A stretch of DNA of 64,000 nucleotides from Thermoproteota archaeon (GTDB taxonomy: Archaea; Thermoproteota; Nitrososphaeria_A; Caldarchaeales; Calditenuaceae), in NCBI GenBank assembly GCA_030550235.1, contig JAUQPU010000002.1, forward strand, positions 231,164 through 295,163. The letters run 5' to 3'. The notes under the pieces are model-generated. The model saw nothing but the letters and a program-made list of their open reading frames with translations, was not told the DNA's origin and did not search any database. A program made the position numbers and the translations under genes. This document shows positions 1,288 to 53,052 of this stretch, piece by piece (position 1 is the stretch's first letter; the number at the start of each line of letters is the position of its first letter).

Positions 1288-2436
1288 ATGCCAGTATCTC
1301 GGATAGACATACCGAACATAAGGCTCGGAGAGGAATTCAGCTGCAGCTGCGGTAAGAGACACCGGGTAGCGACCCGGCAGCTATTCTTCGGCGACTCGCT
1401 GGAGACGCTCCTTACCTCCCTCGACGATATAACATCTAAAGGTGGTCACGCTGTGATAGTTACCGGGCCAAGGACGCGACTCATAGCTGGCGAGACTGTC
1501 AAGGGATACTTTGCCTCGAGGGGGTTTCGTACACTTGTCATTGAGGTTGAGAGGGCTGACCTAGCCACTGTCGCGGAGGTTGAGAAGCTTGCCTCGGGCT
1601 GCTCCCTAACAGTGGCTGTGGGTGGTGGGAATGTGATAGACTCTTGCAAATACGCGGCGCACACGCTAGGTGTGCCATTCATCTCAATACCTACAACGAT
1701 ATCCCACGATGGCATAGCCTCACCTGTCGCCTCGATCCTCCTCGGCTCGAGAAGGACAAGCATAATGGCCACGCCTCCTGTAAAGGTTGTTATCGCCGAG
1801 CCACTCATCAGAAGCTCACCAAAGAGGCTAATCGCATCAGGTTGTGCGGACATACTCGCAAAGTCCACAGCCTTAAGAGACTGGCTACTAGGCCACATCA
1901 TAAAGGATGAGTACCTCTGCGAAAATACCTTAAACCTCACGGCCTCGGCCTTAAAAGATGTTAGAAGTTTTATCGACGGTGGAGGGAGAGATTTCCTACC
2001 TCTCGCTTCCGCCGCTGCGAAGTGTGGTGTAGCCATGGCGCTTGTCGGCTCCTCGAGGCCTTGCTCAGGGGCTGAACACCTCTTCTCGCACTACCTCGAT
2101 ATGGTCGGTGAAGGCTTAGGGCTTCACGGCGAGCAGGTGGGGCTCGGAGCTATACTCATGGCCGCCAGGTATGAGGACTCTGACGCACCCCCAGTGAAGG
2201 GGTTTGAGCTCTCAAGCCTAGATTTAAAAAACTATCTCTCAAGGGCAGGCGCGCCAACCAGCATAAGGGAGATTAACATCTCAACAGAGACGGCCGTAAG
2301 GGCGCTTCTAGAGTGTAAGAACCTCAGACCGGAGAGATACACCATACTACACCACGCACCGCTTACACAAACAGCCGCGCTCAAGCTCCTCAAGCAGACG
2401 GATATGCTCACCGAGACCCAGCAGCCCAAAGAATAG
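1288..2436 (+). CDS. egsA: glycerol-1-phosphate dehydrogenase [NAD(P)+] for the archaeal lipid backbone; the true start is possibly downstream
   Basis: Glycerol-dehydrogenase/DHQ-synthase-like fold motifs VAVGGGNVIDSCKYAA and IPTTISHDGIASP. Adjacent to NAD kinase, as is common in archaea. Confidence 0.7.
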   Translation: MPVSRIDIPNIRLGEEFSCSCGKRHRVATRQLFFGDSLETLLTSLDDITSKGGHAVIVTGPRTRLIAGETVKGYFASRGFRTLVIEVERADLATVAEVEKLASGCSLTVAVGGGNVIDSCKYAAHTLGVPFISIPTTISHDGIASPVASILLGSRRTSIMATPPVKVVIAEPLIRSSPKRLIASGCADILAKSTALRDWLLGHIIKDEYLCENTLNLTASALKDVRSFIDGGGRDFLPLASAAAKCGVAMALVGSSRPCSGAEHLFSHYLDMVGEGLGLHGEQVGLGAILMAARYEDSDAPPVKGFELSSLDLKNYLSRAGAPTSIREINISTETAVRALLECKNLRPERYTILHHAPLTQTAALKLLKQTDMLTETQQPKE

Positions 2437-2481
2437 TTCAACCCCCTTGCAGCGGCGGGCTGCGATGTCTTTATCACCTAG

Positions 2482-3297
2482 TTGGATGGTAGCGTGGATG
2501 GATTGTATGTTATAGTGGTGTATAGAAGAGATAAGCAGGGGGCTGACAGGGGGGCTTTAGAAGTTGGAGAACTCCTCCGGACCTACGGATGCGAGTATGA
2601 CCTCTACATGATGGATGAAAAAGGGATAAAGGAGCCTCTTGGATGCGACTACCTAATAGTCCTTGGCGGAGATGGCACCATACTGGCCTCCATCCACGCA
2701 CTTGAGGAGCCTGAGACACCAGTTCTCGCCATCTCATATGGAAGGGGTGGATATCTCGCAGATGCCTCACCCCAGGAGGCTAGGCGCGCCGTATCCGCGC
2801 TGCTTAACGGGAACTTCAGGCTTGACAGGCTCATGAGGCTCGATATAACTATAGACGGAGAGCTAATATCCGACGTAGTCAACGAGGCCTACATCTCAAA
2901 CTCCCTGGTAGGAAAGGTCGTAGAATTCGACCTAGAGGTCGAGAGGCTAAAGCTACAGAGCATAGTGGCCGACGGCATGGTCTTCTCAACACCGGTCGGC
3001 TCAACAGGATACAACACATCCCTAGGCGGCCCACTAGTCGACGAAGAGCTCGAACTAATCATAGCCACACCAGTCGCCCCCATAACAAGCCTCCGACCAA
3101 TGGTCTTCTCGGCACTAAGGCGTATAGTCATGAAAGGGGTTAGGGGGCCATTCTGCGCAGTTATCGACGGCTTAATAAGGCATGAATTTGAGAAGGGCGA
3201 GATCGTAGTCACAAAGTCACGCCACAGCACCGTCCTAGTAAGGACCTCGGAGGTATCACTCTGTGAGAGAAGAATCAAGAAGAGACTCGGAATCTAG
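2482..3297 (+). CDS. nadK: NAD+ kinase
   Basis: GGDGT motif (LIVLGGDGTIL) and the downstream DG...TPVGSTGYNTSLGGP NAD-kinase signature. Confidence 0.85.
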   Translation: MDGSVDGLYVIVVYRRDKQGADRGALEVGELLRTYGCEYDLYMMDEKGIKEPLGCDYLIVLGGDGTILASIHALEEPETPVLAISYGRGGYLADASPQEARRAVSALLNGNFRLDRLMRLDITIDGELISDVVNEAYISNSLVGKVVEFDLEVERLKLQSIVADGMVFSTPVGSTGYNTSLGGPLVDEELELIIATPVAPITSLRPMVFSALRRIVMKGVRGPFCAVIDGLIRHEFEKGEIVVTKSRHSTVLVRTSEVSLCERRIKKRLGI

Positions 3298-3676
3298 AGC
3301 CTACGTACTAGATACAAACGCGCTCCTCCTAGGATTCAGTGGAGTCAAAAACCTCTACACAACAGAAGCGGCCATTAAAGAGGTCAAATACGACGAACTC
3401 CAAGTAGCAAGGCTTGAGGCAATGCTAACATCCGGCGCATTAAAAATCGCTAGGCCAACAACAGAGGCCATAGAAAAAGTAAAAGAATCCGCAGGAAAAC
3501 AACTCGACAAGCTCTCCCAAACAGACCTAACAATACTAGCAGCAGCACTCGACCTCACAAAAACCCATAAAAAAGTCATAATCGTAACCGACGACTACAC
3601 CATACAACAACTCACAACAAAACTCCAACTAAACTTCATACCACTAAAACACAGTGGCATAAGAAAAACAAGATAA
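3263..3676 (+). CDS. PIN-domain protein (predicted ribonuclease)
   Basis: N-terminal YVLDTNALL acidic PIN motif and later VIIVTDDYTIQQ. Overlaps the nadK end by 35 nt. Confidence 0.55.
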   Translation: MREESRRDSESRAYVLDTNALLLGFSGVKNLYTTEAAIKEVKYDELQVARLEAMLTSGALKIARPTTEAIEKVKESAGKQLDKLSQTDLTILAAALDLTKTHKKVIIVTDDYTIQQLTTKLQLNFIPLKHSGIRKTR

Positions 3677-3850
3677 AAACCCGAGAACCAAACATCTGCA
3701 ACCAGCCAATATCCACTGAAGTCTTTAACAAGTGTATCAATCGCACGACCGCACCCCTAATAGCAACGAGGTTCTTAGCAGGTTTCAACCTTTCCTTCTC
3801 CTTTTGAAGGAGTTGAGTTATTTATGCTCTGGAGAGTTTAATCTTTTGTG

Positions 3851-4636
3851 TTAGATGGGTATCGGGCGGCGTTTATATACCCTATAGATAATCATGATTA
3901 GCGCCGCTATAATTGTCCACCAGGTTACTATGCGTACCGCTGTTGCATTTACACTGTGAATGTTTATGTGGGTTGGGTCTTGTGTTAGGAAGACTGCACA
4001 GAACGTGAATATGGCGACTGTCAATGCACCTATTATGTCTATTATGTTTTCTTTTCTTTGACCTGTATTGGTAATCTGCTTGGGAATTGTTTTCTTGAAT
4101 ATTAGAGCTGCCACGCTAGCTACAGCTGCAATTGTAGCGTATGTCTCAATGGTAATTTTTGGGGCTTGTGGCAAGTTTAGTTGAATGCTTATACGATAAG
4201 TTAGCCCCACAAGGACAAGTATTAGTAGTAGGGTTATTTTCTGTTTTCTAGTTAGTAACCTGTGATTCCAGTCTCGCGGGAAAAAGCGTGTTGCAATATA
4301 GAAGGTTAGGACACCCTGAATCATCCCCCACCAGAAAATATTGACATAGAAAAAAACAGGCCAATTTATGCCTAATAATTGCGGCTCAGCGAACTGGGTT
4401 GCAGGCACAAATATTGTGAAGACTGTTCCGAAAAAGAAGCCTACGATGACGAGGTGATAGTCTCTCAGGTGATATTTTCTGATCAGGTCTTCTAACAATA
4501 TAAAGTAAGGAAAGTATACCATGGATAGGAAAAGCGGCAGTAGAGGGTGAACTGTTAAGTCGTTTATACCTCTCATAGAGTATTCGAATAGTAAATTAAA
4601 TGCTACAGCGGCAAGCACTATCTTCCAATGGCTCAA
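3851..4636 (-). CDS. polytopic membrane protein, unknown function
   Basis: Multiple hydrophobic helices. Lies in a lower-GC stretch flanked by AT-rich intergenic DNA. Confidence 0.45.
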   Translation of the reverse strand: MSHWKIVLAAVAFNLLFEYSMRGINDLTVHPLLPLFLSMVYFPYFILLEDLIRKYHLRDYHLVIVGFFFGTVFTIFVPATQFAEPQLLGINWPVFFYVNIFWWGMIQGVLTFYIATRFFPRDWNHRLLTRKQKITLLLILVLVGLTYRISIQLNLPQAPKITIETYATIAAVASVAALIFKKTIPKQITNTGQRKENIIDIIGALTVAIFTFCAVFLTQDPTHINIHSVNATAVRIVTWWTIIAALIMIIYRVYKRRPIPI

Positions 4637-4846
4637 TGTAATCTATACACTCATTATTTCTAACCTAGTTTTGCTTAAAAACTTTAAGGTAGATGCGAAG
4701 CGAACAACCATAATCACGTCTATTTAACTCGAGAATTATGTTTTATGAAATCATAAATGTGCTCGTGTAGAGGTGGTCGAGGGTTAGGTTTTATCCTTTT
4801 TTAGGATTCTCGTGCCTGAGGTGTAGCATATGTTTATAATCTATAA

Positions 4847-5884
4847 ATGAGGTGGTCTGTGTGGCTGGTTATGTCTTATTCTGTGGATGAGTTTAGGTGT
4901 AGTGTTTGTGGGGCTCCGATTGATGTCTCTCCTTACTCGGTTGTGGTTGTTTGTGGTTATTGTGGGTGGAGCTCCTCTGTTGAGAGTGCTGGTTTGAAGC
5001 CTTTGGTCGTCCCGCCGGAGGATAGGGGCTTTCTCAGAGCATGGCTGGAGAAGATTGTCAGGTCAAAGGCTGGGAAAATAGCGACCGTTAGAGATGTCAG
5101 GTTTTTGATGGTGCCGGTCTGGGTCGTTTATGTAAACGCATCCACGCGATATAATGGGTATCGAACTGAAACTAGGTCGCGAAGAGTTGGGACAGGGAAA
5201 TATGCCAGAATCCAGACGTACGACGTCTACGTCCCTGTTAAAGGTGTCATCGACGAGAAGCTTGCCATCGCTGTTTATGGGCGAAGGTTCGAGTCGACAT
5301 TTGGGATTGGGACGGTGAAGTCGAGTGTCCTTGACAGGGTGCGGTCTGCTGTGGAGCTTGAGCCTTCCTTAACGAAGGGGTGGGATGTTCTTGGCTCAGA
5401 ATTCTCACAGGAAGAGGTGTTAGAAGCAGCCAAGACACGCGTAGCTGATGAGCATCGTAGAAGGCTTGAGTCGATGACGACCAAGCTCTATGACTGCTAC
5501 ACCACTGCGGATGTAGCTGGGGCACGTCTCATCCTCTACCCAGTCTTAGAGGCTCGATACGAGTCTGGTGGAAAATCATATCGGATGATTATTGATGGGG
5601 TTAAGGGCTCTACGAGGGTTTTGAAGGCGGAGCTTCCCATTACTACCTCCGCGAGAATTATTAGAGGATTAGCTGCCGCCGCTGTGGTTTTTGCTGCAGC
5701 CTTGCTTGCGTCGTTGCTCCAGCCTCTAATAGGTACGGAGATCCCTGAGGAGCTACAGCTTGCGATGACTGTCGCTCCACCGGCGATAGCGGGGTTTGCA
5801 GGGTTCTTGGGCTCAATGATGGCTACAGCTGTGCAGAGAATATCTAAAACAGTTGAAGAAATAGATATACGGGTCTTGGGGTGA
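4847..5884 (+). CDS. zinc-ribbon protein with C-terminal transmembrane region (paralog A); the true start is possibly ATG at 4871
   Basis: CSVCGAP...CGYCGW zinc ribbon near the N-terminus. A conserved block MVPVWVVYVNA is shared with the next gene. C-terminal hydrophobic segment AAAAVVFAAALLASLL...AIAGFAGFLG. A TATA-like TTTATAA sits about 35 nt upstream of 4871. Confidence 0.6.
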   Translation: MRWSVWLVMSYSVDEFRCSVCGAPIDVSPYSVVVVCGYCGWSSSVESAGLKPLVVPPEDRGFLRAWLEKIVRSKAGKIATVRDVRFLMVPVWVVYVNASTRYNGYRTETRSRRVGTGKYARIQTYDVYVPVKGVIDEKLAIAVYGRRFESTFGIGTVKSSVLDRVRSAVELEPSLTKGWDVLGSEFSQEEVLEAAKTRVADEHRRRLESMTTKLYDCYTTADVAGARLILYPVLEARYESGGKSYRMIIDGVKGSTRVLKAELPITTSARIIRGLAAAAVVFAAALLASLLQPLIGTEIPEELQLAMTVAPPAIAGFAGFLGSMMATAVQRISKTVEEIDIRVLG

Positions 5885-6894
5885 AGAAGATGTCTATCCA
5901 CATATATCAGTGCCCGAACTGCGGGGCCCCGTACAAAGTCAGAGAGGGGGACGTGGCGATAAAATGCAGTTACTGCAATACCGTCTTCAGAACATTCGAG
6001 GATGAAAAACGATTCATCATTCCAGTCTACTATGACAGTAGTCGGGCCATTGAAAACTTTCTTCTCTGGGTGAAAAAACAGACGGGCTATGAGGAGTCAC
6101 TTCCATTCAACATAAATCTTCTCGAGGTCAAACTGCATTTTTACCCATTCTGGGTTGTATCGCTTAATGCGAGGACAACCTTCACAGGAGTGGGGGAATA
6201 CGCGGAATTCAGTAACCCCGACTCAGGAGGCTATAGGAATATCAGAGTCATGACAAGAGAAGAATCTGGTAGTTTTGAGAGATTCTTCGAGCTTGTGCTA
6301 CCTGCTTCAAAAGATATCCCGTCAGAAGGTGAAGTCGTCGGCGTTTCAAGGATGAGAAAATTCTTCAGCCATGAATATGTCGAGCAGCAAGGTGGAGTTT
6401 TACACGGAGCCACAATTACGAGAGAGGATGCAAAAAGCATGGCCGAGCAGATAGCCGCAGCTGAGCTATCGAGACTTATCATGAGAGAAGTAGTGACAGT
6501 GAATACTCGAAACGATCAAATCCAGATCAAAGAGATCGCGCTCGTTTATATTCCGTTATGGCATGTGTCCTACGAGTTTAGGGGAGAGAAATATCGGGCA
6601 TTTATTGATGCCTCGTCGAGCAGGATTATCTACGCGTCTTATCCACCTGATATCGCTGAGAAGACGGCTTACTTGGGTGTTGCGGCTCTTCATGTAGTAC
6701 TAGGAGTTGTTTCAGCCTTTTTATTTTGGGGTTTTGGGTGGCTGCCAGTGGTCACCGTGTTCATCGGTTTTATTACAGCCGCTGTTGTTTATGCTTGGCG
6801 TGGTCTCTCTCCGACAAGGGCTAGAGAAATGGTTGATGAGAGAGACTTACTGAGGAAACAGGTCGAGACAGCAGCCAAGAAATGGTTGAGATAG
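5881..6894 (+). CDS. zinc-ribbon protein with C-terminal transmembrane region (paralog B)
   Basis: CPNCGAP...CSYCNT ribbon, a YPFWVVSLNA block, and the C-terminal TM AALHVVLGVVSAFLFWGFGWLPVVTVFIGFITAAVVY. Same architecture as the upstream gene. Confidence 0.6.
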   Translation: MKKMSIHIYQCPNCGAPYKVREGDVAIKCSYCNTVFRTFEDEKRFIIPVYYDSSRAIENFLLWVKKQTGYEESLPFNINLLEVKLHFYPFWVVSLNARTTFTGVGEYAEFSNPDSGGYRNIRVMTREESGSFERFFELVLPASKDIPSEGEVVGVSRMRKFFSHEYVEQQGGVLHGATITREDAKSMAEQIAAAELSRLIMREVVTVNTRNDQIQIKEIALVYIPLWHVSYEFRGEKYRAFIDASSSRIIYASYPPDIAEKTAYLGVAALHVVLGVVSAFLFWGFGWLPVVTVFIGFITAAVVYAWRGLSPTRAREMVDERDLLRKQVETAAKKWLR

Positions 6895-6937
6895 ACGGAG
6901 GTTTGAAGGAAACTATTATATTAGGGGATTCACAACG

Positions 6938-7483
6938 TTGGGCAAGATGAGCATAGAACGCGTCCGTAAAGAAATGGGACTCATGGAGAAAATCATGAGC
7001 TACATACCTGGATATAGGGGGTATAAGGAGAAGGAAATTAGAAGGGAGACAGACATTCTTGTGAGAAGAAAAATTAGCGGCATTCTCGCAGAGGCCCGGT
7101 CAATGCTAAACTCACCTCTGGGCCCGTCGGAGGCTAGAAAACTTGCCTATGATCAAGAGTCTAGGTTCGCTCTTGAAAATATTAGAACATCCCTCGACAA
7201 GGTGTCACAGCGGATAGATAAGGCCGTGGCTGGATATGCTGGGTTGTTTGACGCTGTCAAGATCCGGGAAGACAAGCTCGACGCCGTAATTAGTCATGAC
7301 CTTTCTCTGATTGAGAAGGCCGAGTCGATTAAGGCAATAGTTTCAGATCTTTTTTCGAAAAACATTGGGACTCCTGAGTGGAAAAACACGCTTACGGGCT
7401 TGATTTCAGCGGTTAGGGAGTTAGATCAGTTGATTGATGAGAGAATCGAGTTGCTGGAGGGTCTGAGCGAGGTGTCTGGCTGA
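6938..7483 (+). CDS. predicted all-helical coiled-coil protein, unknown function
   Basis: Helix-favouring composition throughout, with no TM segment. Its stop overlaps the ATG of the next gene (ATGA), suggesting translational coupling. Confidence 0.55.
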   Translation: MGKMSIERVRKEMGLMEKIMSYIPGYRGYKEKEIRRETDILVRRKISGILAEARSMLNSPLGPSEARKLAYDQESRFALENIRTSLDKVSQRIDKAVAGYAGLFDAVKIREDKLDAVISHDLSLIEKAESIKAIVSDLFSKNIGTPEWKNTLTGLISAVRELDQLIDERIELLEGLSEVSG

Positions 7484-8448
7484 TGCCTAAGGTCATTCAA
7501 TGGGTCGGGGCTAGAGAGGGAGACATAGTCTGGCGGTATCCTATAGACGAAATTGAGTGGGGGAGCAACTTAATTGTTGAGGAGTCACAGGCTGCTGTAT
7601 TTTTCCGAGATGGAAAAGCTTACGACGTGTTCAGGGCTGGTAGACATGTGATAACGACCGCAAATCTTCCACTTATCACAAAAGTTCTCTCAAGGATTGC
7701 GGGCTTTGACCGCGTACCCTTTAAGGCAATGGTTGTCTTTGTCTCTCTGAAACAGTTTCAAGGAAAGTTTGGGACACAGGGCCAGACAAGCGAGTTGGCT
7801 CCCCTTAAATTCTTTGGCAGCTTCTGGTTCAGAGTTGCTGAGCCCAACCTCTTCGTCCAAGAAGTGGTAGGCTCGCAGGGAACATATAGTACTGAGCAAA
7901 TGCAAGATTTCCTCAGGGCATATTTTAACGAGGCGCTAATCGACGAGTTGAGCCGGCACAGCATCGTCGAGGTTTACGGCAAACTCGATGAGACAAGCTT
8001 CCTTGCCAGAAATGTTGTCGGTCAGGCTTTCGTCAGGATTGGTCTGGAGTTGATTGATGTGAAGTTTGAAGGCCTTGACACCACGCCCGAGTGGAGGGAT
8101 AGAATCTTCTACCTGAGGCAGGGTGTTTCAGCAGCGGAGGTTCTTCGTATGCAGACAGTCGCTAAAACTGCTGAAGCTCTTTCCCAAAGCCAGGGCGCCG
8201 CTGTCGGAGCTGGTATCGCAGTCATACCTCCGCTTTTCCAGCAGCCTGTACAGCAGCCTCCCACTGTCGTGATCCTATGCCCCAGCTGTGGTTTCCAGAA
8301 CCCCCAGGGTGCAAAGTTCTGCAGTAACTGTGGAAAGCCCCTCGGCCCGCCACCCACGCCACAGCAACCAGCCAACAAGTGTCCAAACGGCCACGATGTT
8401 CCTCCAGGCTCTAAATTCTGCCCCGAATGCGGAGCCAAGCTATCATGA
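7483..8448 (+). CDS. SPFH/Band-7-like (Band_7_1-type) domain protein with C-terminal double zinc ribbon
   Basis: The N-terminal 230 aa resemble the PF13421 pattern (VIQWVG..DIVWRYP..SNLIVEESQAAVFFRDGK..AGRHVITTANLP..KFGTQGQ). Then a Q/P-rich linker and two ribbons, CPSCGFQNPQGAKFCSNCG and CPNGHDVPPGSKFCPECG. Confidence 0.65.
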   Translation: MPKVIQWVGAREGDIVWRYPIDEIEWGSNLIVEESQAAVFFRDGKAYDVFRAGRHVITTANLPLITKVLSRIAGFDRVPFKAMVVFVSLKQFQGKFGTQGQTSELAPLKFFGSFWFRVAEPNLFVQEVVGSQGTYSTEQMQDFLRAYFNEALIDELSRHSIVEVYGKLDETSFLARNVVGQAFVRIGLELIDVKFEGLDTTPEWRDRIFYLRQGVSAAEVLRMQTVAKTAEALSQSQGAAVGAGIAVIPPLFQQPVQQPPTVVILCPSCGFQNPQGAKFCSNCGKPLGPPPTPQQPANKCPNGHDVPPGSKFCPECGAKLS

Positions 8449-8762
8449 TCAGCTACGGGTCAGGAGCCCTAATCACCATAACATGCTCTCTAGGGATACT
8501 CCTTGTCCTAGGCGGAGCAGGGATAGTTCCAATCAACCTGCAGACAATAGCAGGCGTAGTGCTATCTATTTTCGGCATATACTCCATAGTATACAGCGTG
8601 TTTTCGAAAGATCTTTTCTACCACACACTTTGGGGTGGTGTATCAATAGCTATAGGAGCTGCATTACTTACCTCACCGGTAGTCAACCCAACCATAATGG
8701 TGGGAATAGCCCTCATTTTCATATCAATAGTAGGAGCTATAGCAGCACTTAAAAAAAGATAA
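8427..8762 (+). CDS. small membrane protein (3 predicted TM helices), last gene of the operon
   Basis: Hydrophobic 111-aa ORF overlapping the upstream gene's end by 22 nt. Confidence 0.5.
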   Translation: MRSQAIMISYGSGALITITCSLGILLVLGGAGIVPINLQTIAGVVLSIFGIYSIVYSVFSKDLFYHTLWGGVSIAIGAALLTSPVVNPTIMVGIALIFISIVGAIAALKKR

Positions 8763-8834
8763 TACAGATTCTCATCCGCGTTCGTCAACAACTTGTGATA
8801 TAGTGCATGAAGGCCCGGTAAAGAGTGTAGTTGT

Positions 8835-9366
8835 TCAAGTTATATCCAGCCGAGTCGTCGGAAGACCCAGAGCATTAGGATGGCTGTCCTCTATTGCCTC
8901 AAGCTCTTGCATAAGATTGTCCAGCATAGGGAACAAATCGTCCACCAACCTGTCCAATATTGTGTAAAGGATATAGGCCGGGCCTCTGCCCATAATGTCC
9001 TGTCGCCGGGCCGCATTGTCTCTGCACGTTTGGAAAAGCGCTGATAGGGGTTTTACATCTGACTGATTTACTGTGACGAGATAGTTTTTGCCGAGGAAGA
9101 CTCCTATCTGAGCCAATGTTATCGTGCTTCTATGGCTGTCGGTTTGGGGGAAAGTGTAGGATAGCGAATATGTGGTTAGGGTATACGTCGATTTTCGGGA
9201 GCTGGACTTTTGAGATGCAATCTTCAAGATTTAACATGCTGAAGGGGAAATGACGGCCCAGCATGTCCATCTCTCTCTGACTGGGCTTATTCACATTCAC
9301 CCAAACCACACCATCATGTCTCAGAAACTCTAAGCCGTCGAACTTCTCCACAACCCTAAACAGCAT
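8835..9366 (-). pseudogene. corA: frameshifted and 3'-truncated Mg2+ transporter CorA
   Basis: Two overlapping ORFs in different frames, 9130..9366 and 8835..9227, together match the CorA cytoplasmic domain (DGVVWVNVNKPSQREMDMLGRHF..LNLEDC..; ..KNYLVTVNQ..GPAYILYTILDRLVDDLFPMLDNL..LEAIED). The C-terminal TM helices and GMN motif are missing. Confidence 0.65.
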
Positions 9367-9447
9367 ACTACACTCTAATAAATTTCAGGCCTCTTGGATA
9401 CTATATCGTTGAGATTAACAGTCCTCCATAGACCTCCTATAGCTTCT

Positions 9448-10107
9448 CTATTTGGCAGAGAGCTGGGCTGAGACCTCAATTCTATTCGAGTTTCTATGGA
9501 TGGTTATTTCGAGCATCCCCAATAGCCTACCCTCAACTGTGCTCGGTCCCCCGACGCTTATATTAGCTTCATCAGCAGTGACGGAGACAAATGTAACTTC
9601 TTCGCGTAGCCCCCTGTTTTTCAGCTCCTCCTTGATCCTGTTCGAAACCATAGAGTGGTCCTCTATTGGTGATGAGGATGTATATTCCGCTGTTATGATT
9701 AAAACGTCTTCAAATATTGTCTCCGTGTATTGGGTGAGCGTTATTTTACTCCCAGTAGCAGATGAAAGGACTGAAGCCATGAAGCTGTTAAATTTTTTAC
9801 CAAACTCTGATGGTGGAGTTACTTCAGTAGTTCCACCAGTCTCTGTCCTACCTGTCATCATAGTGAATTCATGGGTTGTACTGAACGTCGTCAAGCCTGT
9901 CCTCGGAATGTAGGTGGAAAACAAGCCAATAATCAGGGCAGCCACAACCAGCAAGCCTATAACCAATAAGACCAAGGCCATCTTCATAATACACTGTTTG
10001 TCGAGATTTGGCAACCATATAAACATTTTTACCAAAGAAACCTCATGCGGCGCTTGAGGCAATATCGCCTCTATTTTTCTTATTTTCAAGAGAAAGACTA
10101 TGCACAA
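9448..10107 (-). CDS. membrane-anchored or secreted protein with Thr-rich linker, unknown function; the probable start is the internal MKMALVLL
   Basis: N-terminal hydrophobic anchor (ALVLLVIGLLVVAALIIGLF), then a T-rich segment (TTFSTTHEFTMMTGRTETGGTTEVTPP), then a globular domain. Confidence 0.45.
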   Translation of the reverse strand: MCIVFLLKIRKIEAILPQAPHEVSLVKMFIWLPNLDKQCIMKMALVLLVIGLLVVAALIIGLFSTYIPRTGLTTFSTTHEFTMMTGRTETGGTTEVTPPSEFGKKFNSFMASVLSSATGSKITLTQYTETIFEDVLIITAEYTSSSPIEDHSMVSNRIKEELKNRGLREEVTFVSVTADEANISVGGPSTVEGRLLGMLEITIHRNSNRIEVSAQLSAK

Positions 10108-10144
10108 TTTTTAAATATTTCTCTAGTCGAAGTATCTGAACAAA

Positions 10145-11287
10145 ATGATGTCCGATAAAATTAGATTGGCCTTGGTTGTAATAGTTATTTTGGTTATAGT
10201 AGTCGGAGTTTTTTCCGACGTTGCTGATGCAGCCCATACCCCTGCTTGGAGAAGAACTCGAACTAGAACTAGGACCACAACCTCGGCTCCAACATCGACA
10301 ATCCAAACAACAACTACAACATCTTCTAACACAGGATACTCTGATACGTTTCCAGCCGTTAATCCGGCAATTCTTGGAACATGTCCGCCTGAGGTCCATG
10401 ATAGATACTATGTCATCGGCCCTGATGGTAGAAAATACAGGACATGGCATCCTGTAACCGTGCCTATAGACCCGAATAACCCTGCAAAAGGCACATGCAC
10501 GTTTGCTCATGAACACGGTGATAATCCGCAGCAGGGAAGCTTCACAGACCTTCCCGCATTTGGATACGCAGCGAAGGTCGCTGGAATGGTTGAGGAGATA
10601 GCAGCCCACGCAGGCTTCAAGGTCTTCTACAAGCCAAAGAGGGGCGATGGACTAGGCAACAACGCTGAGTGGAGAATAGTAGTCCATCAGGGCACTGCTG
10701 GTGCGCGACGGCTAGTTCAAAGCCTCCACAGCATCCAAATCAATATAGTCGATGGGGCTGGGAGAGTAACTAAGGTTAACCTAATGGCTTCAACAGGTAA
10801 CCTCAACCCGAAATGCGGACCCCGCGTGGGCGACAGAATAATCCCCGACGAAGAATGCGTCTCCCGGGGGCTGTTCTACGAGGTCTGGTATTTCTCGGTG
10901 CGTGTAGGTGCTGGCAACATCAACGGAGCCAGGTTCTTCGCAGCGCCGGGAATCGCCGTCTACAACCCCATGACATACATGAAAGTAGGCGACCTCTCCA
11001 AAGTTTATCCAATATGCAGCGTGGTTGAGGGCCTGCCTTTCGGGGACCCGAGAAGTTTTTTCCTCGGCAACCAGAGAGCAGTTGAGCATCCAGACTTCGG
11101 CTGGGGCAACACAGGCTCCTCAACCTTCTGGACAGACGCATATGGCAATGAAGTCTCCACAAGCTGCGACCCCACCCGATGCATCAGACAGGTGGTTCCA
11201 TCAGGATACTATGCCTGGTTCGACGATGACTCGGTCTTCGACTGGCCTTGGATAGACCTGCCACTGGGCGCACCAGGGGGCAACTAA
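10145..11287 (+). CDS. secreted or anchored Cys-containing protein with Thr-rich linker, unknown function
   Basis: Signal/anchor LALVVIVILVIVVGVF, a TRTRTRTTTSAPTSTIQTTTTTSS linker (likely glycosylated), and a ~300-aa domain with several Cys and an HEHGD motif. Confidence 0.55.
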   Translation: MMSDKIRLALVVIVILVIVVGVFSDVADAAHTPAWRRTRTRTRTTTSAPTSTIQTTTTTSSNTGYSDTFPAVNPAILGTCPPEVHDRYYVIGPDGRKYRTWHPVTVPIDPNNPAKGTCTFAHEHGDNPQQGSFTDLPAFGYAAKVAGMVEEIAAHAGFKVFYKPKRGDGLGNNAEWRIVVHQGTAGARRLVQSLHSIQINIVDGAGRVTKVNLMASTGNLNPKCGPRVGDRIIPDEECVSRGLFYEVWYFSVRVGAGNINGARFFAAPGIAVYNPMTYMKVGDLSKVYPICSVVEGLPFGDPRSFFLGNQRAVEHPDFGWGNTGSSTFWTDAYGNEVSTSCDPTRCIRQVVPSGYYAWFDDDSVFDWPWIDLPLGAPGGN

Positions 11288-11502
11288 AAACCATATTTTT
11301 GCAATTCAGAAAAACATTTTAAAGAGCAGGAGAACTGGCCGATAAGAATCCATTTCAAATAAAGCGCTCGAACTCTTGCATTCCGAGAGTCATATGTAGA
11401 AATAAGAAATTATGCTTAATTATCAAATCAATATCTGAATAATAATTAATACTTATTTTAGGGGCATGTTGGTAAGATTAACCTGAGGGTTGACCTTACA
11501 TA

Positions 11503-12217
11503 CTATCCTACGCCTGGTGATGCGATGATAAGAGAGGGTACATAGAACTGTAAGATTGTGGTGATAGCGTAAAAAGCCATGAGAAGTACTCCCTCGCGTC
11601 GTGTGAGGAGTTTGTCGACGAACAACGGTGTTGCCAACAGTGTGAGGACAGATGCCCAATAGGCTTGGAGGCTGAGTAAAACTCCAGATGGGATTGTCAT
11701 CTCCAAACCATTTGACATTGTTGCTGCTAAAACCATTATTCCCAGCAGCAGTGAGTTATTGAGAATCTCGCTTCCGAGGATGTTTGCTATGGCTGTATCG
11801 ACTCCCACGCCTGCAGGTTCTTCGAGGTATTTGACAAATGGCTCAGCGGCTAAAAATATGCCGGCACCGCGCAGTATGAAGAGTATGGATAAAAAAAGCA
11901 TTGATGAGGGCGGCTTGTAGCTTTCTCGTTTAGAAGATACGTCTCCGTGTTTTTCGGCTTCGGATTAGCGAAGCTGCATGATACGAAAAACCCTAAACAC
12001 CATGGAAAGCAAAGATGGTATATGCTATGAAAAACGTAGCAAATAGAACACCGTCAAGCGTTTGATATCCATCGATAAACAAGACGGTGCTGGCTATCGA
12101 GACAATGATGCTTAATCCCAGGCTCATTAATAATATGTTGCTACCCATAGCCGAGCCCAAAACCGTTCCATACAAGCCAATAGAGGCGGCGCTAGCAACC
12201 AGCACAATCTCTGGCAA
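11503..12217 (-). pseudogene. fragments of a Ca2+/cation antiporter (CaCA, Na+/Ca2+ exchanger-type) gene
   Basis: Two short ORFs, 11993..12217 and 11503..11901, each carry an alpha-repeat-like motif (GSAMGSNILLMSLG; ANILGSEILNNSLLLG). They are separated by a frame break, and neither is a full-length protein. Confidence 0.5.
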
Positions 12218-12461
12218 TATCGTGGTGATGCTAGGCAGTGTTCTGCCGACAAAACGGGCGCCAAATCTGTGAGCGACTACCTCTGCACCCCATGATGACA
12301 GTCAGCCAGGCAAGCAGCAAAATAACTGCGCTCATGGCATTCGTGATGACGTTACAGTCTTTCATGAAACAAAGCATGTCAAGTCATACAATGTGCCCTC
12401 TTTATCTCTTTGGGAAGCCAAAAAGGCTACGAAAATTTAGTTAAATGTAGTATAACTGTGT

Positions 12462-14159
12462 TTAATGGCTGCAGCCGCATGATGGACCGCAGTTCTCTTC
12501 TTTTCCGGGTCCGCCTTGGACGGTTTGTAGCGCCTTTAGCCCGCCGAAGCCGGCGGTTTTAGTTGAAGCCATAGGCACCGCACTCTGTTTTGCTGGCAGC
12601 TTACGCTTGTAGAAGTCATCAGACAGCTTTCTGCCCGTCCTTTTCTCCCACTCCTCTATAGAGATTCCATAGACCGCCTGAATCCGGTCCCTGTACCATG
12701 CCGGGACTACATTGAAGGAGCAGAACGGCACTATCCTCATATCTGGTGTAAGGTAGTGGATGTCACATCTTCTGAGGCGTTCCTCATCGTGGTTATAGGG
12801 GTCCATGAAATGCATCATGCCTAGGAATAGTGATCTGCGGTGCCAGTCGCCTACGCTTTTGTAGTCGTGTCTTACTATTATGTCGAAGATCATTCTTGCG
12901 AGGTTCATTCCTGGGGGTTGTTTTTCTTTCTTGATAAACTTGGATATATTTGCTAGAACTTTCATTCCGACCCAGACTCTGCTTCTACCCATCTCGACCT
13001 CCTCGGCCTTGTCTTGTAGATATTTTATGAGCCCCTCAACGTCTACGAACTCTGTTATTGGAAGCATCTTGTCGTCTTTCTTGAAGACGTAGGTTCCTGC
13101 GCCGCAGGCGAAGTGTATGCTCAGCTCATATTTTGGCGTCCTCGTCAGAGCCTCTATGAAGTTTGTGAGCGGTGTGCAGGCTGGTACGGGGAACCAGGCA
13201 TCCCTTGTGATCTCGCCGTTTGTCTGTTCCTCAATTCTGATTATGCAGTCTGGTATCGTGATCCTATACTTCTCTCTCTCCTTCTTGGGCATCCTTCCGG
13301 TTAGGGAGACGGGCTGGAAGTTTACGGCCCTCACGACATCTATGTTCTTGAATCCGAATCGGATTATGTCGCCGAGCTCGTGGTCGTTTACGCTCTTAAT
13401 GACCGTGGGGACTAGGACTATTCCCACACCCAGCTTCCTAGCGTTCTCAAGAACTCCGGGCACTTCCCAGTGGTTCTTTGGGTTGGTCCTAGGTGTGACG
13501 CCGTCGAAGCTCATGTAGAGGTTGCTGACGCCAGCCTCTTTTACCCGCTTGAAGTATTCGAAGTCCTTGGAAAGTCTTATCCCATTGGTGTTGAGCTGGA
13601 TGTGGTCTACGCCTACTTCTTTGAGGATTTTTATGATTTCGGGGAGGTCGTCCCTAAGAGTGGGCTCTCCTCCGGTTATCTGGATGCTGTTGCCTGGTAC
13701 TGGCCTCTCTGCCTTCAGGTTAAGGGCCATCTCCCTGATCTGGTCCAGCGTTGGCTCGTAGATGTAGCCGGCCTTCTCCGCGTAGAAGAAGCAATACCAG
13801 CAGTGCAGGTCGCATCTATTGGTTATGACTAGGTTTGCGAGGCCTGTGTGGCTGAGGTGTGAGCTGCAGAGCCCACAGTTGTAGGGGCAGACGCTGCGGG
13901 CCGACTCTACATCGGGGTTTCCCGTCCCCTTCCCATCCTTAAGCCAGCTTGCAAACCTGTAATACATCTCAGCGTCGCCGAAGTATAGCTCGTCAAACTC
14001 TCCATGCTTGGGACAGGTCTTTTTGATGTATATTTTCCCATCGATCTCTAGAACATCTGCTGGTAGGGATTGGTAGCACTCTGGGCAGATGCTCCGGGTC
14101 CTTGTAACCAGCTTCTCCTTTACCTCCGTCTTCTCTCTCTCCTGTACAAGTGTAGCCAT
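12462..14159 (-). CDS. radical SAM enzyme with N-terminal rubredoxin-like Cys4 site and additional Cys clusters; possibly a tetraether lipid synthase (Tes/GDGT-MAS)-like enzyme
   Basis: CPECY..CPKHG and then CPYNCGLC. Radical SAM CxxxCxxC as NRCDLHCWYCF. GGEP glycine-rich SAM motif (ITGGEPTL). Cys-rich C-terminus CGPSCGCSH. Length 565 aa. Confidence 0.7.
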   Translation of the reverse strand: MATLVQEREKTEVKEKLVTRTRSICPECYQSLPADVLEIDGKIYIKKTCPKHGEFDELYFGDAEMYYRFASWLKDGKGTGNPDVESARSVCPYNCGLCSSHLSHTGLANLVITNRCDLHCWYCFFYAEKAGYIYEPTLDQIREMALNLKAERPVPGNSIQITGGEPTLRDDLPEIIKILKEVGVDHIQLNTNGIRLSKDFEYFKRVKEAGVSNLYMSFDGVTPRTNPKNHWEVPGVLENARKLGVGIVLVPTVIKSVNDHELGDIIRFGFKNIDVVRAVNFQPVSLTGRMPKKEREKYRITIPDCIIRIEEQTNGEITRDAWFPVPACTPLTNFIEALTRTPKYELSIHFACGAGTYVFKKDDKMLPITEFVDVEGLIKYLQDKAEEVEMGRSRVWVGMKVLANISKFIKKEKQPPGMNLARMIFDIIVRHDYKSVGDWHRRSLFLGMMHFMDPYNHDEERLRRCDIHYLTPDMRIVPFCSFNVVPAWYRDRIQAVYGISIEEWEKRTGRKLSDDFYKRKLPAKQSAVPMASTKTAGFGGLKALQTVQGGPGKEENCGPSCGCSH

Positions 14160-14322
14160 CTATCTTCACCCGCCCCCGTCTTCCGGCCTATTTAAGACTT
14201 ATCTGACAAAATTCACTGTGATAAAGGTAGAAGCCATGCCTCTCAAACTAGTTTAGCTAAATAAATCATATATACAGCCAGTAGCGTGGGATTATCAGGA
14301 GTCTTAAAAAGAGGCTGAGGAG

Positions 14323-14694
14323 ATGCTGCTGCCATCTGAGATTGAGGCGAAGGTGATGCTTCCCGTCCTTAGGGCGGCGGTAGTGACTCTTCTCGTCAGA
14401 GAATATGGCTTTCAGCAGCGGCAGGTTGCTAAGGCCCTTGGGATAACACAGCCGGCTGTGAGCAATTATTTGAGAATGGCCCGGGGCAAGATGAGGGAGA
14501 TTTGGGGGAACACTGCTATGAAAGAGGTTGCGGAGGGCATCGTCATGGCGATTCTAAACGGTAAGGATGAGATGGAGGTTAGGGAGCTTTTCCAGAAGGG
14601 GCTTGAGAGGCTTAGAAAAGAGAGGGTGCTCTGCCAGGCACATAAAACCCTGGAGCCGATACTTGATGTTGATTCATGCCACATCTGTGATTGA
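14323..14694 (+). CDS. helix-turn-helix transcriptional regulator
   Basis: HTH QRQVAKALGITQPAVSNYL. C-terminal CQAH...CHIC possible metal site. Confidence 0.55.
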   Translation: MLLPSEIEAKVMLPVLRAAVVTLLVREYGFQQRQVAKALGITQPAVSNYLRMARGKMREIWGNTAMKEVAEGIVMAILNGKDEMEVRELFQKGLERLRKERVLCQAHKTLEPILDVDSCHICD

Positions 14695-14730
14695 AACGCT
14701 TAAAAACATGTTAGGCAGCCTCTAATAGAT

Positions 14731-15234
14731 GTGAAGGCTTTCATTCTCGGGTCTGTCGGAAAGAGGAGTGAGCTTATAGAATGTCTCCAGGCAACCCGGA
14801 GGAGCCAGTTCGTGGAGGAGGCCTACCTCATCTTCGGGACGGCAGATCTAATTGCTAAAGTAAATGTTAACAATGTGGAGCAGCTAAACTCGGTCCTCGA
14901 CACGCTCTACCAAAACGGCATCGTCGACACAAACACGTTGATAGTAAATTCGGCGGGCCTAAACTTTGAGAGGCAGCCTCAACAGGCTAAGAAGAAGTGC
15001 GCCTACACTTTCATCAAGATCAGGAGACCGGCAGCGCCGAGGCTTTGGGATAGGTTTCTGCAGAGTATCGAATATGTGACTGAGGCATATGAGATATTCG
15101 GGGTATATGATGTGATCGTGGGCGTGAGTGAGGATGCGAGGAATGACTTCTTCAACTCCTACTTCAGGAGGCTCTGGCTACTCACAGAGATTAACATGAA
15201 CTCCACGACTACGATGTTTACTGTGGATATCTAG
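14731..15234 (+). CDS. tandem Lrp/AsnC-type ligand-binding (RAM) domain protein lacking its own HTH
   Basis: Two repeats of the RAM pattern (VEEAYLIFGTADLIAKV...TNTLIV and VTEAYEIFGVYDVIVGV...TTTMFTV). Confidence 0.55.
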   Translation: MKAFILGSVGKRSELIECLQATRRSQFVEEAYLIFGTADLIAKVNVNNVEQLNSVLDTLYQNGIVDTNTLIVNSAGLNFERQPQQAKKKCAYTFIKIRRPAAPRLWDRFLQSIEYVTEAYEIFGVYDVIVGVSEDARNDFFNSYFRRLWLLTEINMNSTTTMFTVDI

Positions 15235-16475
15235 GCCTTGAAGTATTTTAGGGCCTGTCTGAGGCCCTCGGCAAGCATGTGGATCTCTTCTCTCGTGTTG
15301 TATATGTAGAAGCTGGCTCTGGTGGTGGCTGTTAGGCCGAGCTTTGCGTGTAGGGGCATGGCGCAGTGGTGTCCTGCCCTGACTGCTATGTTGAAGGTCT
15401 TATCGAGATAGTCTGCTAGGTCGTGGGGGTGGATGTCGGCGAGTATGAATGAGACGAGGCCGCAACGGTCCTTCACAGACTCGGGCCCGATAATTCTTAG
15501 GTGTGGAATCTCGGAGAGTTCCTGGAGGGCTGTCTCTGTAAGCTCCTCCTCATGTCTCCTAACCCAGTCGAGGCCTATCCTCTTCAGATACTCTACCGCC
15601 GCTCCTAGACCCACTACGTCCCCCACGCTGGGCGTCCCCGCCTCAAATTTCCATGGAACTTCATTCCACTTTGAGCTACTTAGAGTCACCTCCCTAATCA
15701 TCTCACCCCCTCCCATGAACGGGTCCATCGACTCCAGTAACTCCTCGCGGGCTATCAGACACCCGACACCCATGGGGCCGAGCATCTTGTGCCCGGAGAA
15801 GGCTAGGAAGTCGCATCCAATCTCTTTGAAGCTGACAGGCATGTGTGGGACGCTCTGGGCCGCATCCACAAGCACTGCGGCGCCATACTCTTTCGCGGTC
15901 TTCGTGAGCTTTTTGACCGGGTTTATCGTTCCCAGAACATTCGAGGCGTGGACTATTGCCAGCAGGTCAGCATCCTTCAGGAACCTATCTATCTGGCTCA
16001 GGTCTAGGTAGCCGTCGGCCGTTATTGGTATCGCCTCGAGCTTAAGGTCCTTCAGCCCAGAGATAAGTTGCCACGGGACTATGTTGCTGTGATGCTCCAT
16101 CTCGGTGAAGACGATCTTCCCTCCCCTCTTTATTTTGCCTAGGGCGTAGGAGTATGCGACGAGGTTTATCGCCTCGGTCGTGTTTCTCGTGAAGACAACC
16201 TCACGCCAGCTGTGAGCATCAATGAACCCCGCTACCAGCCTTCTGACGCTCTCGTAGCGCTCAGTGGCCTCTATCGAGAGGTCGTAAACACCCCGGTGGA
16301 CGTTTGCGTTTAACTCGGCATAGTACTTCTCCATGGCTTGCAGCACCTGTCTTGGCTTCTGAGAAGTGGCGGCGTTGTCGAGATAGACTAGTGGCTTAGA
16401 GCCTCTCCTGGCCGAGAGTATTGGGAAGTCTTCCCTAATCCTGTATGGCGACTTTGACGCGGCCTCTTGGCTCAA
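15231..16475 (-). CDS. sufS: cysteine desulfurase (class V aminotransferase, SufS-type)
   Basis: PLP-lysine motif SGHKMLGPMGVGCL and LDNAATSQKP near the N-terminus. Length 414 aa. Confidence 0.85.
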   Translation of the reverse strand: MSQEAASKSPYRIREDFPILSARRGSKPLVYLDNAATSQKPRQVLQAMEKYYAELNANVHRGVYDLSIEATERYESVRRLVAGFIDAHSWREVVFTRNTTEAINLVAYSYALGKIKRGGKIVFTEMEHHSNIVPWQLISGLKDLKLEAIPITADGYLDLSQIDRFLKDADLLAIVHASNVLGTINPVKKLTKTAKEYGAAVLVDAAQSVPHMPVSFKEIGCDFLAFSGHKMLGPMGVGCLIAREELLESMDPFMGGGEMIREVTLSSSKWNEVPWKFEAGTPSVGDVVGLGAAVEYLKRIGLDWVRRHEEELTETALQELSEIPHLRIIGPESVKDRCGLVSFILADIHPHDLADYLDKTFNIAVRAGHHCAMPLHAKLGLTATTRASFYIYNTREEIHMLAEGLRQALKYFKA

Positions 16476-16573
16476 ACTATGAAGCTAGTGGTGCGGGGCT
16501 GATATAAGTGTACACGTGCTTCTCCCATTTGGTTAATGGTTATATTTCTCGATAGCTGTGGTAACGATGCGCC

Positions 16574-16966
16574 TTGAAGTTCAGTGAGAGTGAAGTTCGC
16601 TTTCTAAAGAGAAACGAGCTCTGCCGCCTAGCTACTCTAGATAATGAGGGAGCGCCGCACCTGGTCCCCGTATGCTACATATTCAGTGACGGCTACTTCT
16701 ACATCGTCTCCGACCTCGAGACATCGAAGGTCAGGAACATCAAGGGGGACAGAAGAGTTGCCGTCCTTGTGGACCAGTACCAGCCGAATAGGGCTGTCTT
16801 GGTAAGGGGGGAGGCAGAGATCCTGACGGAGGGTGGCGAGTTTAAGTCGGTTTCCGAGCTCTTCTTTAAGAAGTTCTCATGGGCCCGGCGGGACCCCTGG
16901 GGTGAGGGTGAGGTGGCGTTGATAAGGGTGAGGCCCCTAAAGAAGACTAGCTGGGGCCTTAAGTAG
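16574..16966 (+). CDS. pyridoxamine-5'-phosphate-oxidase-like FMN/F420-binding split-barrel protein
   Basis: LCRLATLD..GAPHLVPVCY pattern typical of PNPOx-like proteins. Length 130 aa. Confidence 0.55.
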   Translation: MKFSESEVRFLKRNELCRLATLDNEGAPHLVPVCYIFSDGYFYIVSDLETSKVRNIKGDRRVAVLVDQYQPNRAVLVRGEAEILTEGGEFKSVSELFFKKFSWARRDPWGEGEVALIRVRPLKKTSWGLK

Positions 16967-16990
16967 TGGCGCGGAGGTTTCTAGAAATAC

Positions 16991-17554: not shown

Positions 17555-17558
17555 CCGC

Positions 17559-19510: not shown

Positions 19511-19770
19511 AGATGGCGGCGGAACAGTGTCAGAATAACTCAATATTTAACCAAGACGTAATACAACATAAACTTCATGGCACTATATTGTCGGATGGAC
19601 CAATAGAATTATAGTTTTCCCAGCCAAAAACAAAAATATAACATTTGGGCTTATATTTTGAGTAAATAATAATAAATTTCCGCTTAAATTTTAGGTTGAA
19701 TAACTACAATATAATTTTCCTTATAAGTTGAGAAGTTTATAGCGTCGCACCCGATACTATAGAACCAGTC

Positions 19771-47613: not shown

Positions 47614-47839
47614 TCTCATAACTCAAGTCTCCTCAGCTCTGTTGCAATTATTATGCCGCGTCTCATCAAATATTACAGCAATGCTCGTGAAGTTATCTGG
47701 CACAGCAACATACAGTATGTCACGCGACACTTGATACGCTACAGGCATGCCAGGTAATTTTTGCATAAATTTTTTAATAAGTATGGGATTTTCCATGACA
47801 ATGGTCTGTCGCATATCTACGTTATGGAAGTATCGTGAC

Positions 47840-48844: not shown

Positions 48845-48923
48845 CTTACATCAGTGTTCAACCCCGTATTTTAACAATATTGTGAGAACAAATATTATAT
48901 ACCGGTTTCCCAGATAGCCAGTT

Positions 48924-53013: not shown

Positions 53014-53052
53014 ATATTTATATGATGTGAAAAGATAGCAAGTGTTGCAACT

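Follow-up and report, generated by a model that had tools for sequence, protein, structure and literature searches.

A flexible island at the PIN-Tes site of a Calditenuaceae archaeon, probably delivered by recombination in its flanks

How did a low-GC block with two dead transporter genes come to lie between conserved genes of a hot-spring archaeon? The question is raised by a locus of an uncultured, hot-spring Calditenuaceae archaeon (Caldarchaeales, formerly 'Aigarchaeota'; phylum Nitrososphaerota). The window, i.e. the whole stretch of 64,000 nt that was analysed, is metagenome-assembled, and coordinates are positions in it. A reading made from the letters and translations (the sequence-only reading) had described 3677-12461 as a variable, probably foreign region with an SPFH operon and decayed genes for CorA and a CaCA antiporter, and this general reading is strongly supported. 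The comparison with relatives shows that 3705-12460 is a genuine flexible island, the same site in relatives being occupied by a short spacer or by unrelated genes. The island lies at a turnover hotspot between a PIN gene and a Tes-like radical-SAM gene (Tes), carries a mosaic cargo and was probably brought there via homologous recombination in the flanks.

The PIN-Tes site and its flanks

The genes for arginase, a G1P-dehydrogenase-like Fe-ADH (G1PDH), NAD kinase (NADK) and PIN_6 form one flank of the island, and the Tes-like gene with its HMPTM zinc ribbon, followed by HTH, Lrp and NifS genes, forms the other. It is by the nearest relatives of these flank genes that the window is assigned to the Calditenuaceae. 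The PIN (+) and Tes (-) genes are convergent and the variable DNA lies between their two 3' ends, so insertions there disrupt no promoter. The parts of the locus are as follows.

3705-12460 (8,756 bp): the variable island proper, bounded by the PIN (+) and Tes (-) genes, whose 3' ends face each other
2100-3704, plus strand: left arm of the recombinant tract, with the 3' end of the G1P-dehydrogenase-like gene, the NAD kinase gene (2482-3297), the PIN_6 gene (3263-3676) and a conserved 3' tail of 28 nt
12461-13500, minus strand: right arm of the tract, covering ~60% of the Tes-like radical-SAM gene from its 3' end (entire gene 12462-14159)

In species A (loci L086-L088) the order is arginase, G1PDH, NADK, PIN, 353 bp, Tes, HTH, Lrp and NifS. 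The blastn homology with L086 ends at 3704, 28 nt beyond the PIN stop, and restarts at 12461, the Tes stop codon; alignment to relatives thus places the breaks close to the bounds that had been drawn by eye. At 526 bp, the PIN-Tes spacer of species D (L097), which is less closely related, is also short. Species C (L090 and L007, one species with 99.985% identity over a 6.7-kb overlap) has an unrelated insert of ~12.9 kb with glyoxalases, enoyl-CoA hydratase, an N6_N4 methylase and a ResIII helicase. In HR02 (L089 and L006) PIN and Tes are found on separate contigs with other genes after each, and in L098 HerA-NurA, TatD and HisRS are found downstream of PIN. The arrangement of the window together with an intact corA was seen in none of these relatives, which hold a short spacer or other DNA.

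Three further observations concern these sites. The last two genes named for the species C insert (L090:17204-20795 / L007:13055-17619) encode an 831-aa N6_N4 DNA methylase and then a 1012-aa ResIII/YagJ-type helicase with a GC content at third codon positions (GC3) of 0.36, and are a restriction-modification- or defence-like pair. L098, whose PIN-downstream region is rearranged, has an intein in its ribosomal protein S12 gene (L098:17707-19680, Pfam Intein_splicing). A 75-aa open reading frame (ORF) in the L097 spacer and a 39-aa ORF in the L086 spacer had been taken by eye for a nucleotidyltransferase fragment and a DUF3782-type N-terminus, respectively; neither idea has Pfam support, and both are treated as orphan ORFs.

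The exact Tes protein was found on 24 contigs of the window's own species from independent assemblies, one of them of 1.39 Mb, and the island is present in all 24. At all same-species places shown the gene order is that of the window, with 99.7-99.99% nucleotide identity across 21.7 kb. Because the same order recurs in 24 independently assembled contigs, the arrangement is genuine, and it is fixed among the sampled genomes. In strain L003 the divergent promoter spacer 5' of the SPFH cassette is longer by a 93-nt insertion at 4766; the remaining strains are collinear. The density of single-nucleotide polymorphisms within the species is 8.8/kb in the corA remnant and ~3/kb elsewhere, a difference made up of six polymorphisms only and not taken as evidence.

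The flanks do not share one ancestry. The island is enclosed by a recombinant tract of ~11.4 kb (~2100-13500) with switch points at ~2100, in the 3' end of G1PDH, and at ~13500, inside Tes. These were placed by sliding nucleotide identity together with counts of informative sites at which the window agrees with species A only or with species C only. Such sites number 494 for A and 180 for C in the inner flanks, and 594 for A and 1191 for C in the outer flanks (Fisher p = 5e-72). Amino acid identities to species A, C and HR02 are 89, 76 and 75% for NADK, 84, 60 and 54% for PIN and 93, 91 and 91% for Tes. Nine outer flank genes (ARG, G1PDH, HTH, LRP, NifS, PNPOx, ThiW, h186 and ThiDN) are closer to species C than to species A, and eight of them, all but G1PDH, are also closer to HR02 than to species A; LRP for example is 92% and 91% identical to C and HR02 vs 80% to A, and ThiDN 86% and 85% vs 72%. 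Within Tes, a patch of 300 nt (13206-13505) is 98% identical to species A (L086), against 82-94% in the surrounding gene and 55-75% in the outer flanks, which suggests a very recent gene conversion between two distinct species.

The guanine plus cytosine (GC) content of 3677-12461 is 0.466 vs 0.516 for the remaining window, and lies within the lowest 0.9% of 8,785-nt windows. The GC3 of the eight intact island genes is 0.492 +/- 0.046 vs 0.626 +/- 0.036 for the 40 other genes, with disjoint ranges (Mann-Whitney p = 5.3e-9). Both the sliding GC and the codon-usage check thus bear out the earlier remark that the region is richer in A/T than its flanks, and the two are clearly distinguishable. 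The island DNA is compositionally foreign to its host. The three AT-rich spacers that had been thought to bound the region are present, with a GC content of 0.425 (3677-3850), 0.338 (4637-4846) and 0.316 (11288-11502), but these values are ordinary for intergenic DNA here (0.21-0.58 in other spacers of the window, among them 0.323 in 19511-19770) and only 3677-3850 lies at a border. They are ordinary promoter or terminator regions.

Low GC is not unique to the island, since the block at 46.6-57.1 kb of the window also has a value of 0.467. The PIN_6 gene has a GC3 of 0.39 in the window and of 0.39-0.50 across its orthologues (L086, L090) vs ~0.6 in its neighbours, which is a property of the gene and no sign of transfer. 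The overlap of the same gene with that for NAD kinase is 35 nt. The second low-GC3 block (46594-58724, GC 0.467, GC3 ~0.51) contains genes for a MoaA-like radical-SAM protein, DUF4432, three GFO/IDH/MocA oxidoreductases, a creatininase-family protein and sugar ABC-transporter components. The sole tRNA gene in the window is found at 59109-59219 on the minus strand; it is 111 nt long, presumably contains an intron, and was matched by Rfam and missed by ARAGORN. This block may be another island, here adjacent to a tRNA gene.

The cargo of the island

The cargo is a mosaic of one five-gene cassette, one orphan membrane protein, two surface proteins with Thr-rich linkers and two dead cation transporters. 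The cassette consists of the following genes.

4847-5884, plus strand: gene 1, ZnA, with an N-terminal CxxC...CxxC zinc ribbon, a central domain and a C-terminal transmembrane (TM) segment
5881-6894, plus strand: gene 2, ZnB, with a zinc ribbon, a central alpha/beta domain and C-terminal TM helices
6938-7483, plus strand: gene 3, CC181, a soluble all-helical protein of 181 aa matching NCBIfam LIMLP_15305 (NF047596)
7483-8448, plus strand: gene 4, the SPFH protein, with Band_7_1 (E = 1.2e-28), a Pro/Gln-rich linker, a C-terminal double zinc ribbon (DZR, E = 3.1e-10) and no TM segment
8427-8762, plus strand: gene 5, TM111, a multi-TM protein of 111 aa, overlapping the SPFH gene by 22 nt

The operon had been described as intact, which it is, but with four genes; it has five, as TM111 is conserved with the cassette. 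ZnA and ZnB are paralogues with 25% identity. ZnB gave weak Zn_ribbon_4 and MJ0042 CXXC matches, and its AlphaFold2 (AF2) model, with a pLDDT of 59, is too weak to interpret. The match of CC181 to NF047596 covers the full length with E = 8.4e-10, which is below the curated cutoff of the model; the family is named from Leptospira and has no assigned function, and it would span bacteria and archaea if the match holds. The AF2 model of CC181 is a helical bundle (pLDDT 75). No significant fold match to it was found in the PDB, and Pfam, a PDB sequence search and the fold search gave no ESCRT-III/PspA match. A similarity to the SRP54 M domain in a PDB profile search (E = 0.0016) is marginal and is not relied on.

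The same five genes are found in the same order in other contexts, namely next to a Cmr type III-B module (L091/L092), within a ribosomal-protein cluster (L093), next to HisRS (L095/L096; L101 is the same HisRS-adjacent locus) and near Tes (L100). In metagenome contig L100 the distance from the cassette to the 3' end of Tes is 6.9 kb, and the orientation is that seen in the window. Across those loci the identity to the window copy is 48-68% for ZnA, 55-67% for ZnB, 56-67% for CC181, 77-87% for SPFH and 38-58% for TM111; the ZnA values are 68% with the first cassette gene of L091, 52% with that of L095 and 48% with that of L093. TM111 is found downstream of the SPFH gene in L091, L093, L095 and L100. 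Nucleotide homology between the copies is limited to coding sequence. Relatives of the SPFH gene number more than 5,000 and come from Caldarchaeales, Bathyarchaeia and Nezhaarchaeota, with 64-87% identity among the best 120 listed; around the SPFH gene, CC181 is found in 70 and TM111 in 54 of 80 metagenome loci. The GC3 of the cassette is 0.87 vs 0.89 for the host in L093, 0.62 vs 0.62 in L095 and 0.50 vs 0.63 in the window. Judged from its sequence, the cassette is a conserved, portable and self-contained unit.

In L091/L092 (Caldarchaeum sp.; L091/L092:5552-6013, 11382-18846) the cassette is found between two fragments of an inosine-uridine nucleoside hydrolase pseudogene and the Cmr module. 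This neighbourhood also looks like a variable region.

The closest architectural parallel is with B. subtilis. SamI/YdjI of that species combines an SPFH domain with a low-complexity linker and, at its C-terminus, a zinc finger, and has no membrane anchor; it is recruited to the membrane by YdjG, a membrane protein with a zinc ribbon, and by YdjH (PMC8581546; PMC9239133; bioRxiv 10.64898/2026.02.06.704340). The archaeal cassette resembles pspA-ydjGHI (samGHI) in its soluble SPFH protein, which is of the Band_7_1 type and has a C-terminal zinc finger after a low-complexity linker (PMC8581546; bioRxiv 10.64898/2026.02.06.704340), and in the co-encoded membrane proteins with an N-terminal zinc ribbon, here both ZnA and ZnB; the likeness is one of architecture. 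It differs in having no PspA/ESCRT-III gene, in having two paralogous zinc-ribbon anchors where the bacterial operon has YdjG plus YdjH, in the additional helical LIMLP_15305-family protein and small multi-TM protein, and in its archaeal host. Because the architecture parallels YdjGHI, ZnA and ZnB are expected to anchor the SPFH oligomer at the membrane. By analogy the cassette should act like YdjGHI/SamGHI, with the anchors recruiting an SPFH oligomer that would organise the membrane or sense membrane stress. Two points weigh against this functional reading, which is drawn from domain architecture: Pfam found no PspA domain in the cassette, and CC181 does not appear ESCRT-III-like. In the classical SPFH-NfeD operons of the stomatin/QmcA-YbbJ type, too, a small membrane protein is encoded after the SPFH gene and in overlap with it, but the SPFH protein here is of the Band_7_1 type without membrane anchor, and TM111 gave no significant match to the membrane domain of NfeD (E = 0.41).

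The remaining intact genes and the spacers between them are listed below.

3851-4636, minus strand: polytopic membrane protein of 261 aa with ~6 TM segments by TM scan, of no family, with the lowest GC of the island (0.407)
4637-4846, no strand: AT-rich divergent promoter spacer of the membrane-protein gene and the SPFH cassette, with a GC of 0.338
9448-10107, minus strand: N-terminally anchored protein with a Thr-rich linker (residues 63-101), of no family
10145-11287, plus strand: signal-anchored protein of 380 aa with a Thr-rich linker (residues 27-74) and a Cys-containing domain of ~310 aa, of no family
11288-11502, no strand: AT-rich spacer with a GC of 0.316, flanked by two genes that converge on it

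The 261-aa membrane protein gave no match with Pfam, NCBIfam, PADLOC or PHROGs and no homologue in the fetched loci from outside the species. The true start of the gene at 9448-10107 is likely an internal Met near 9984, the annotations in metagenome-assembled genomes being 179-195 aa long. Three secreted or anchored proteins with Thr linkers had been claimed; two were verified, at 9448-10107 (-) and 10145-11287 (+), and the third was not. A homologue of the 380-aa protein is found directly 5' of Tes in Caldarchaeum sp. (L011, L022 and L082), with 80% identity overall and 90% over the domain. In one of these loci (L022:8264-11332) the Tes-like gene is a single ORF of 1022 aa with an in-frame insertion of ~1.37 kb at residue ~123, beside the radical-SAM cysteine motif. 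This insertion may be an intein.

Gain, loss and the route of entry

Because the flank genes inside the tract differ in ancestry from the remaining neighbourhood, homologous recombination is the most likely vehicle of the island, and delivery in this way needs no integrase. Recombination would have taken place through G1PDH, NADK and PIN on the left and Tes on the right, with DNA of another Calditenuaceae lineage. The cargo would have been swapped along with the flanks or remodelled afterwards by insertions and deletions. Under this account delivery by a site-specific element would be unlikely, the island being inside a tract of other ancestry. A gain in the lineage of the window fits the short spacers of species A and D, the different cargo of the closest relatives and the composition, and is favoured but not proven.

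Several points weigh against this account. Low GC or GC3 in itself proves nothing about foreign origin, because the second block of the window is equally low and the resident PIN gene has low GC3 in every species. The polarity of gain and loss is unsettled, and species A may have lost an island, because a 39-codon ORF in its spacer shares 82-87% identity over 38 aa with the N-terminal part of an ORF of 140 aa found directly upstream of the L100 cassette. The short spacers of species A and D share no sequence. An old linkage of cassette and Tes with repeated loss is possible, given the position of the cassette near Tes in L100 and the 380-aa homologue by Tes in Caldarchaeum sp. No donor was found, nor any genome outside the species with the island, and the nearest copies of the cassette proteins are at most 88% (SPFH) and at most 68% (others) identical. 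The neighbourhood of Tes is a long-standing zone of gene flux, deletions included.

A rival account is vertical inheritance with differential loss, in which the block, or at least the linkage of cassette and Tes, was ancestral in Caldarchaeales, was deleted to short spacers in A and D and was replaced in species C and HR02, and in which the low GC reflects locally relaxed selection. This explanation is unlikely in our judgement. The same-orientation cassette near Tes in L100, the 380-aa homologue adjoining Tes in L011, L022 and L082, the truncated copy in the species A spacer of an ORF neighbouring the L100 cassette, and two pseudogenes that show the block decaying in place are all what it would lead one to expect. 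The intact cassette genes, however, have a GC3 ~0.13 under that of the host core, whereas the cassette matches its host in L093 and L095, and in L091, L093 and L095 the surroundings of the cassette have nothing to do with Tes. Species C and HR02, the closest relatives when judged by identity of the outer flanks, hold entirely different content, and the discordant ancestry of the inner flanks is not predicted by vertical descent.

A degraded integrated mobile element, such as a provirus, an integrated plasmid or an element like an integrative and conjugative element, with its integrase and att sites eroded, would account for the low GC, the pseudogenes, the orphan membrane and surface proteins and the variability of the site, where species C has the methylase/helicase pair. 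We give it very little credence, as none of the expected traces was found. The sequence-only reading had recognised no integrase, transposase or direct repeats, and the searches agree with it: Pfam, NCBIfam, PADLOC and PHROGs gave no integrase, transposase or recombinase domain in any ORF of 3263-12461, and no att-like direct repeat was found at the island borders, the best border-touching pair (3680-3709 / 8346-8375, 73% identity) being at chance level and no att site. No tRNA gene lies within 3000-13000, Rfam gave nothing in that interval even at E <= 0.1, and a tandem-repeat search found nothing relevant. PADLOC detected no system in the island, PHROGs gave nothing beyond zinc-ribbon noise, a scan of IMG/VR gave no relative of the cassette, and PLSDB gave only distant bacterial SPFH genes (<= 38% identity).

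The sequence-only reading had itself put forward a cause for the damage to corA: the SPFH operon, or a larger element, would have inserted into the resident gene or removed part of it. The two transporter pseudogenes bear on this proposal.

8840-9366, minus strand: corA pseudogene, whose reconstructed ORF matches positions 2-141 of 292 in Pfam CorA (E = 1.5e-22)
9366-9148, 9152-8886, 8884-8843 and 8842-8840, minus strand: its N-terminal piece, middle piece, native last 14 codons and TAA stop
~11503-12377, minus strand: pseudogene of a CaCA (Na_Ca_ex) antiporter (Na_Ca_ex E = 1.2e-13)

With intact relatives as tblastn queries, residues ~14-76 of CorA align at 9336-9148 and residues ~81-165 at 9131-8886 in another frame. 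Because the N-terminal and middle alignments lie in different frames, a frameshift is placed in or beside the C5 run at 9146-9150. The C-terminus follows in the third frame at 8884-8843, where AILMLWVFRRLGWI is identical in 10 of 14 positions to ACLMLWYFRKLGWV of a relative and is directly followed by TAA. It corresponds to residues 325-338 of a 339-aa CorA, lies on the same strand and comes directly after the N-terminal homology. A deletion of ~148 codons (~450 bp), internal and out of frame, with its junction at ~8884-8887, has removed the end of the stalk helix, TM1, the YGMN motif and most of TM2. A functional CorA has two C-terminal TM helices and the GMN motif in one frame; here the frame is broken at ~9146-9150 and TM1 and YGMN are gone. 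Pfam searches of three frames of 8450-8900 gave no C-terminal CorA remnant, which was found by tblastn with full-length relatives. The best intact CorA relatives are only 35-45% identical (exhaustive HMMER search, 1.84 billion representatives), and a word-indexed search with the reconstructed N-terminal 161 aa returned only the pseudogene itself and no corA donor or orthologue.

The description of corA as frameshifted is thus correct, but the gene is not truncated at its 3' end. Operon and corA are indeed close, convergent neighbours, though the gap is not 73 nt (8762 to 8835): the true corA stop is at 8842-8840, and the natural 3' end is 77 nt from the last stop codon of the cassette. Because the missing ~148 codons are internal and the 3' end is intact, truncation by the operon is refuted, and an arrival of the operon or a larger element that split corA or deleted its 3' half is highly improbable. 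Such an event had been made plausible by the end of the corA ORF near the last cassette gene (8835 vs 8762), by the Pfam match to just the first half of the model and by the different genomic context of the cassette in each species examined. Against it stand the retained extreme C-terminus and TAA (8884-8840), the lack of any corA fragment on the other side of the cassette, and the relatives examined, in none of which corA is resident at the PIN-Tes site or adjoins another copy of the cassette. A gene fragment beside an operon is no evidence that the operon broke it.

The fragments of a CaCA antiporter are correctly recognised as such. Both ends of the gene are kept, at least two frame disruptions spread it over three frames, and the second repeat (alpha-2) lacks its first ~63 positions (the match covers 64-150 of 151), so that the complete alpha-1 and alpha-2 repeats in one frame that a functional antiporter has are not found. 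Both corA and the CaCA gene have decayed in place through frameshifts and internal deletions.

A chimeric contig that joins unrelated DNA through an assembly or binning error, which the origin of the window in metagenome-assembled genomes and the abrupt change in composition at the island borders might bring to mind, can be set aside in view of the identical arrangement in the 24 independently assembled contigs, the 1.39-Mb one included.

Relation to known islands and meaning for the family

Flexible islands between core genes that are exchanged by flank recombination are found in pneumococcal capsule loci and in the islands of Prochlorococcus and haloarchaea. The island at the PIN-Tes site resembles them in the polymorphism of presence and content at one fixed site between conserved genes, in its atypical composition, in having no integrase or att site, in its mosaic structure with discordant flank ancestry, and in a cargo rich in membrane and surface proteins, with the methylase/helicase pair at the site in species C. 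It differs in that the polymorphism is between species, 24 of 24 same-species contigs carrying the island, in that no donor was found, and in its cargo, which includes two dead transporters and a membrane cassette that is widely conserved and housekeeping-like, in place of genes for glycosylation or defence. With tRNA-linked, integrase-borne islands and integrated archaeal viruses or plasmids it shares the low-GC block missing from relatives, but it has no integrase, att repeats, neighbouring tRNA, viral or plasmid genes. The island is ordinary genome plasticity of a well-known kind and will not surprise a specialist.

The probable recombinational origin of the island may have a broader basis. 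One tentative and rather doubtful idea is that the conserved gene for the Tes-like lipid synthase serves as a homology arm for recombination between species across Caldarchaeales, with its 3' neighbours repeatedly swapped. If true, this would explain the unrelated cargo at one site in at least five species, the Tes patch of 98% identity between otherwise distant species, and the occurrence of the cassette and the 380-aa surface protein beside Tes in other genera. The SPFH cassette would then be a 'roaming operon' that moves between archaeal genomes without a mobility gene.

The cassette is a candidate archaeal counterpart of the bacterial YdjGHI/SamGHI stress module. Relatives of its SPFH gene are found across Nitrososphaerota, and most metagenome loci that were examined also have its CC181-SPFH-TM111 core. 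The PIN-Tes site is a hotspot of gene flux with exact junctions in an uncultured thermophilic archaeal family. Gene flux there appears to run via homologous recombination in core genes and not via integrases, and the hotspot bears on the exchange of membrane functions among streamlined hot-spring archaea.

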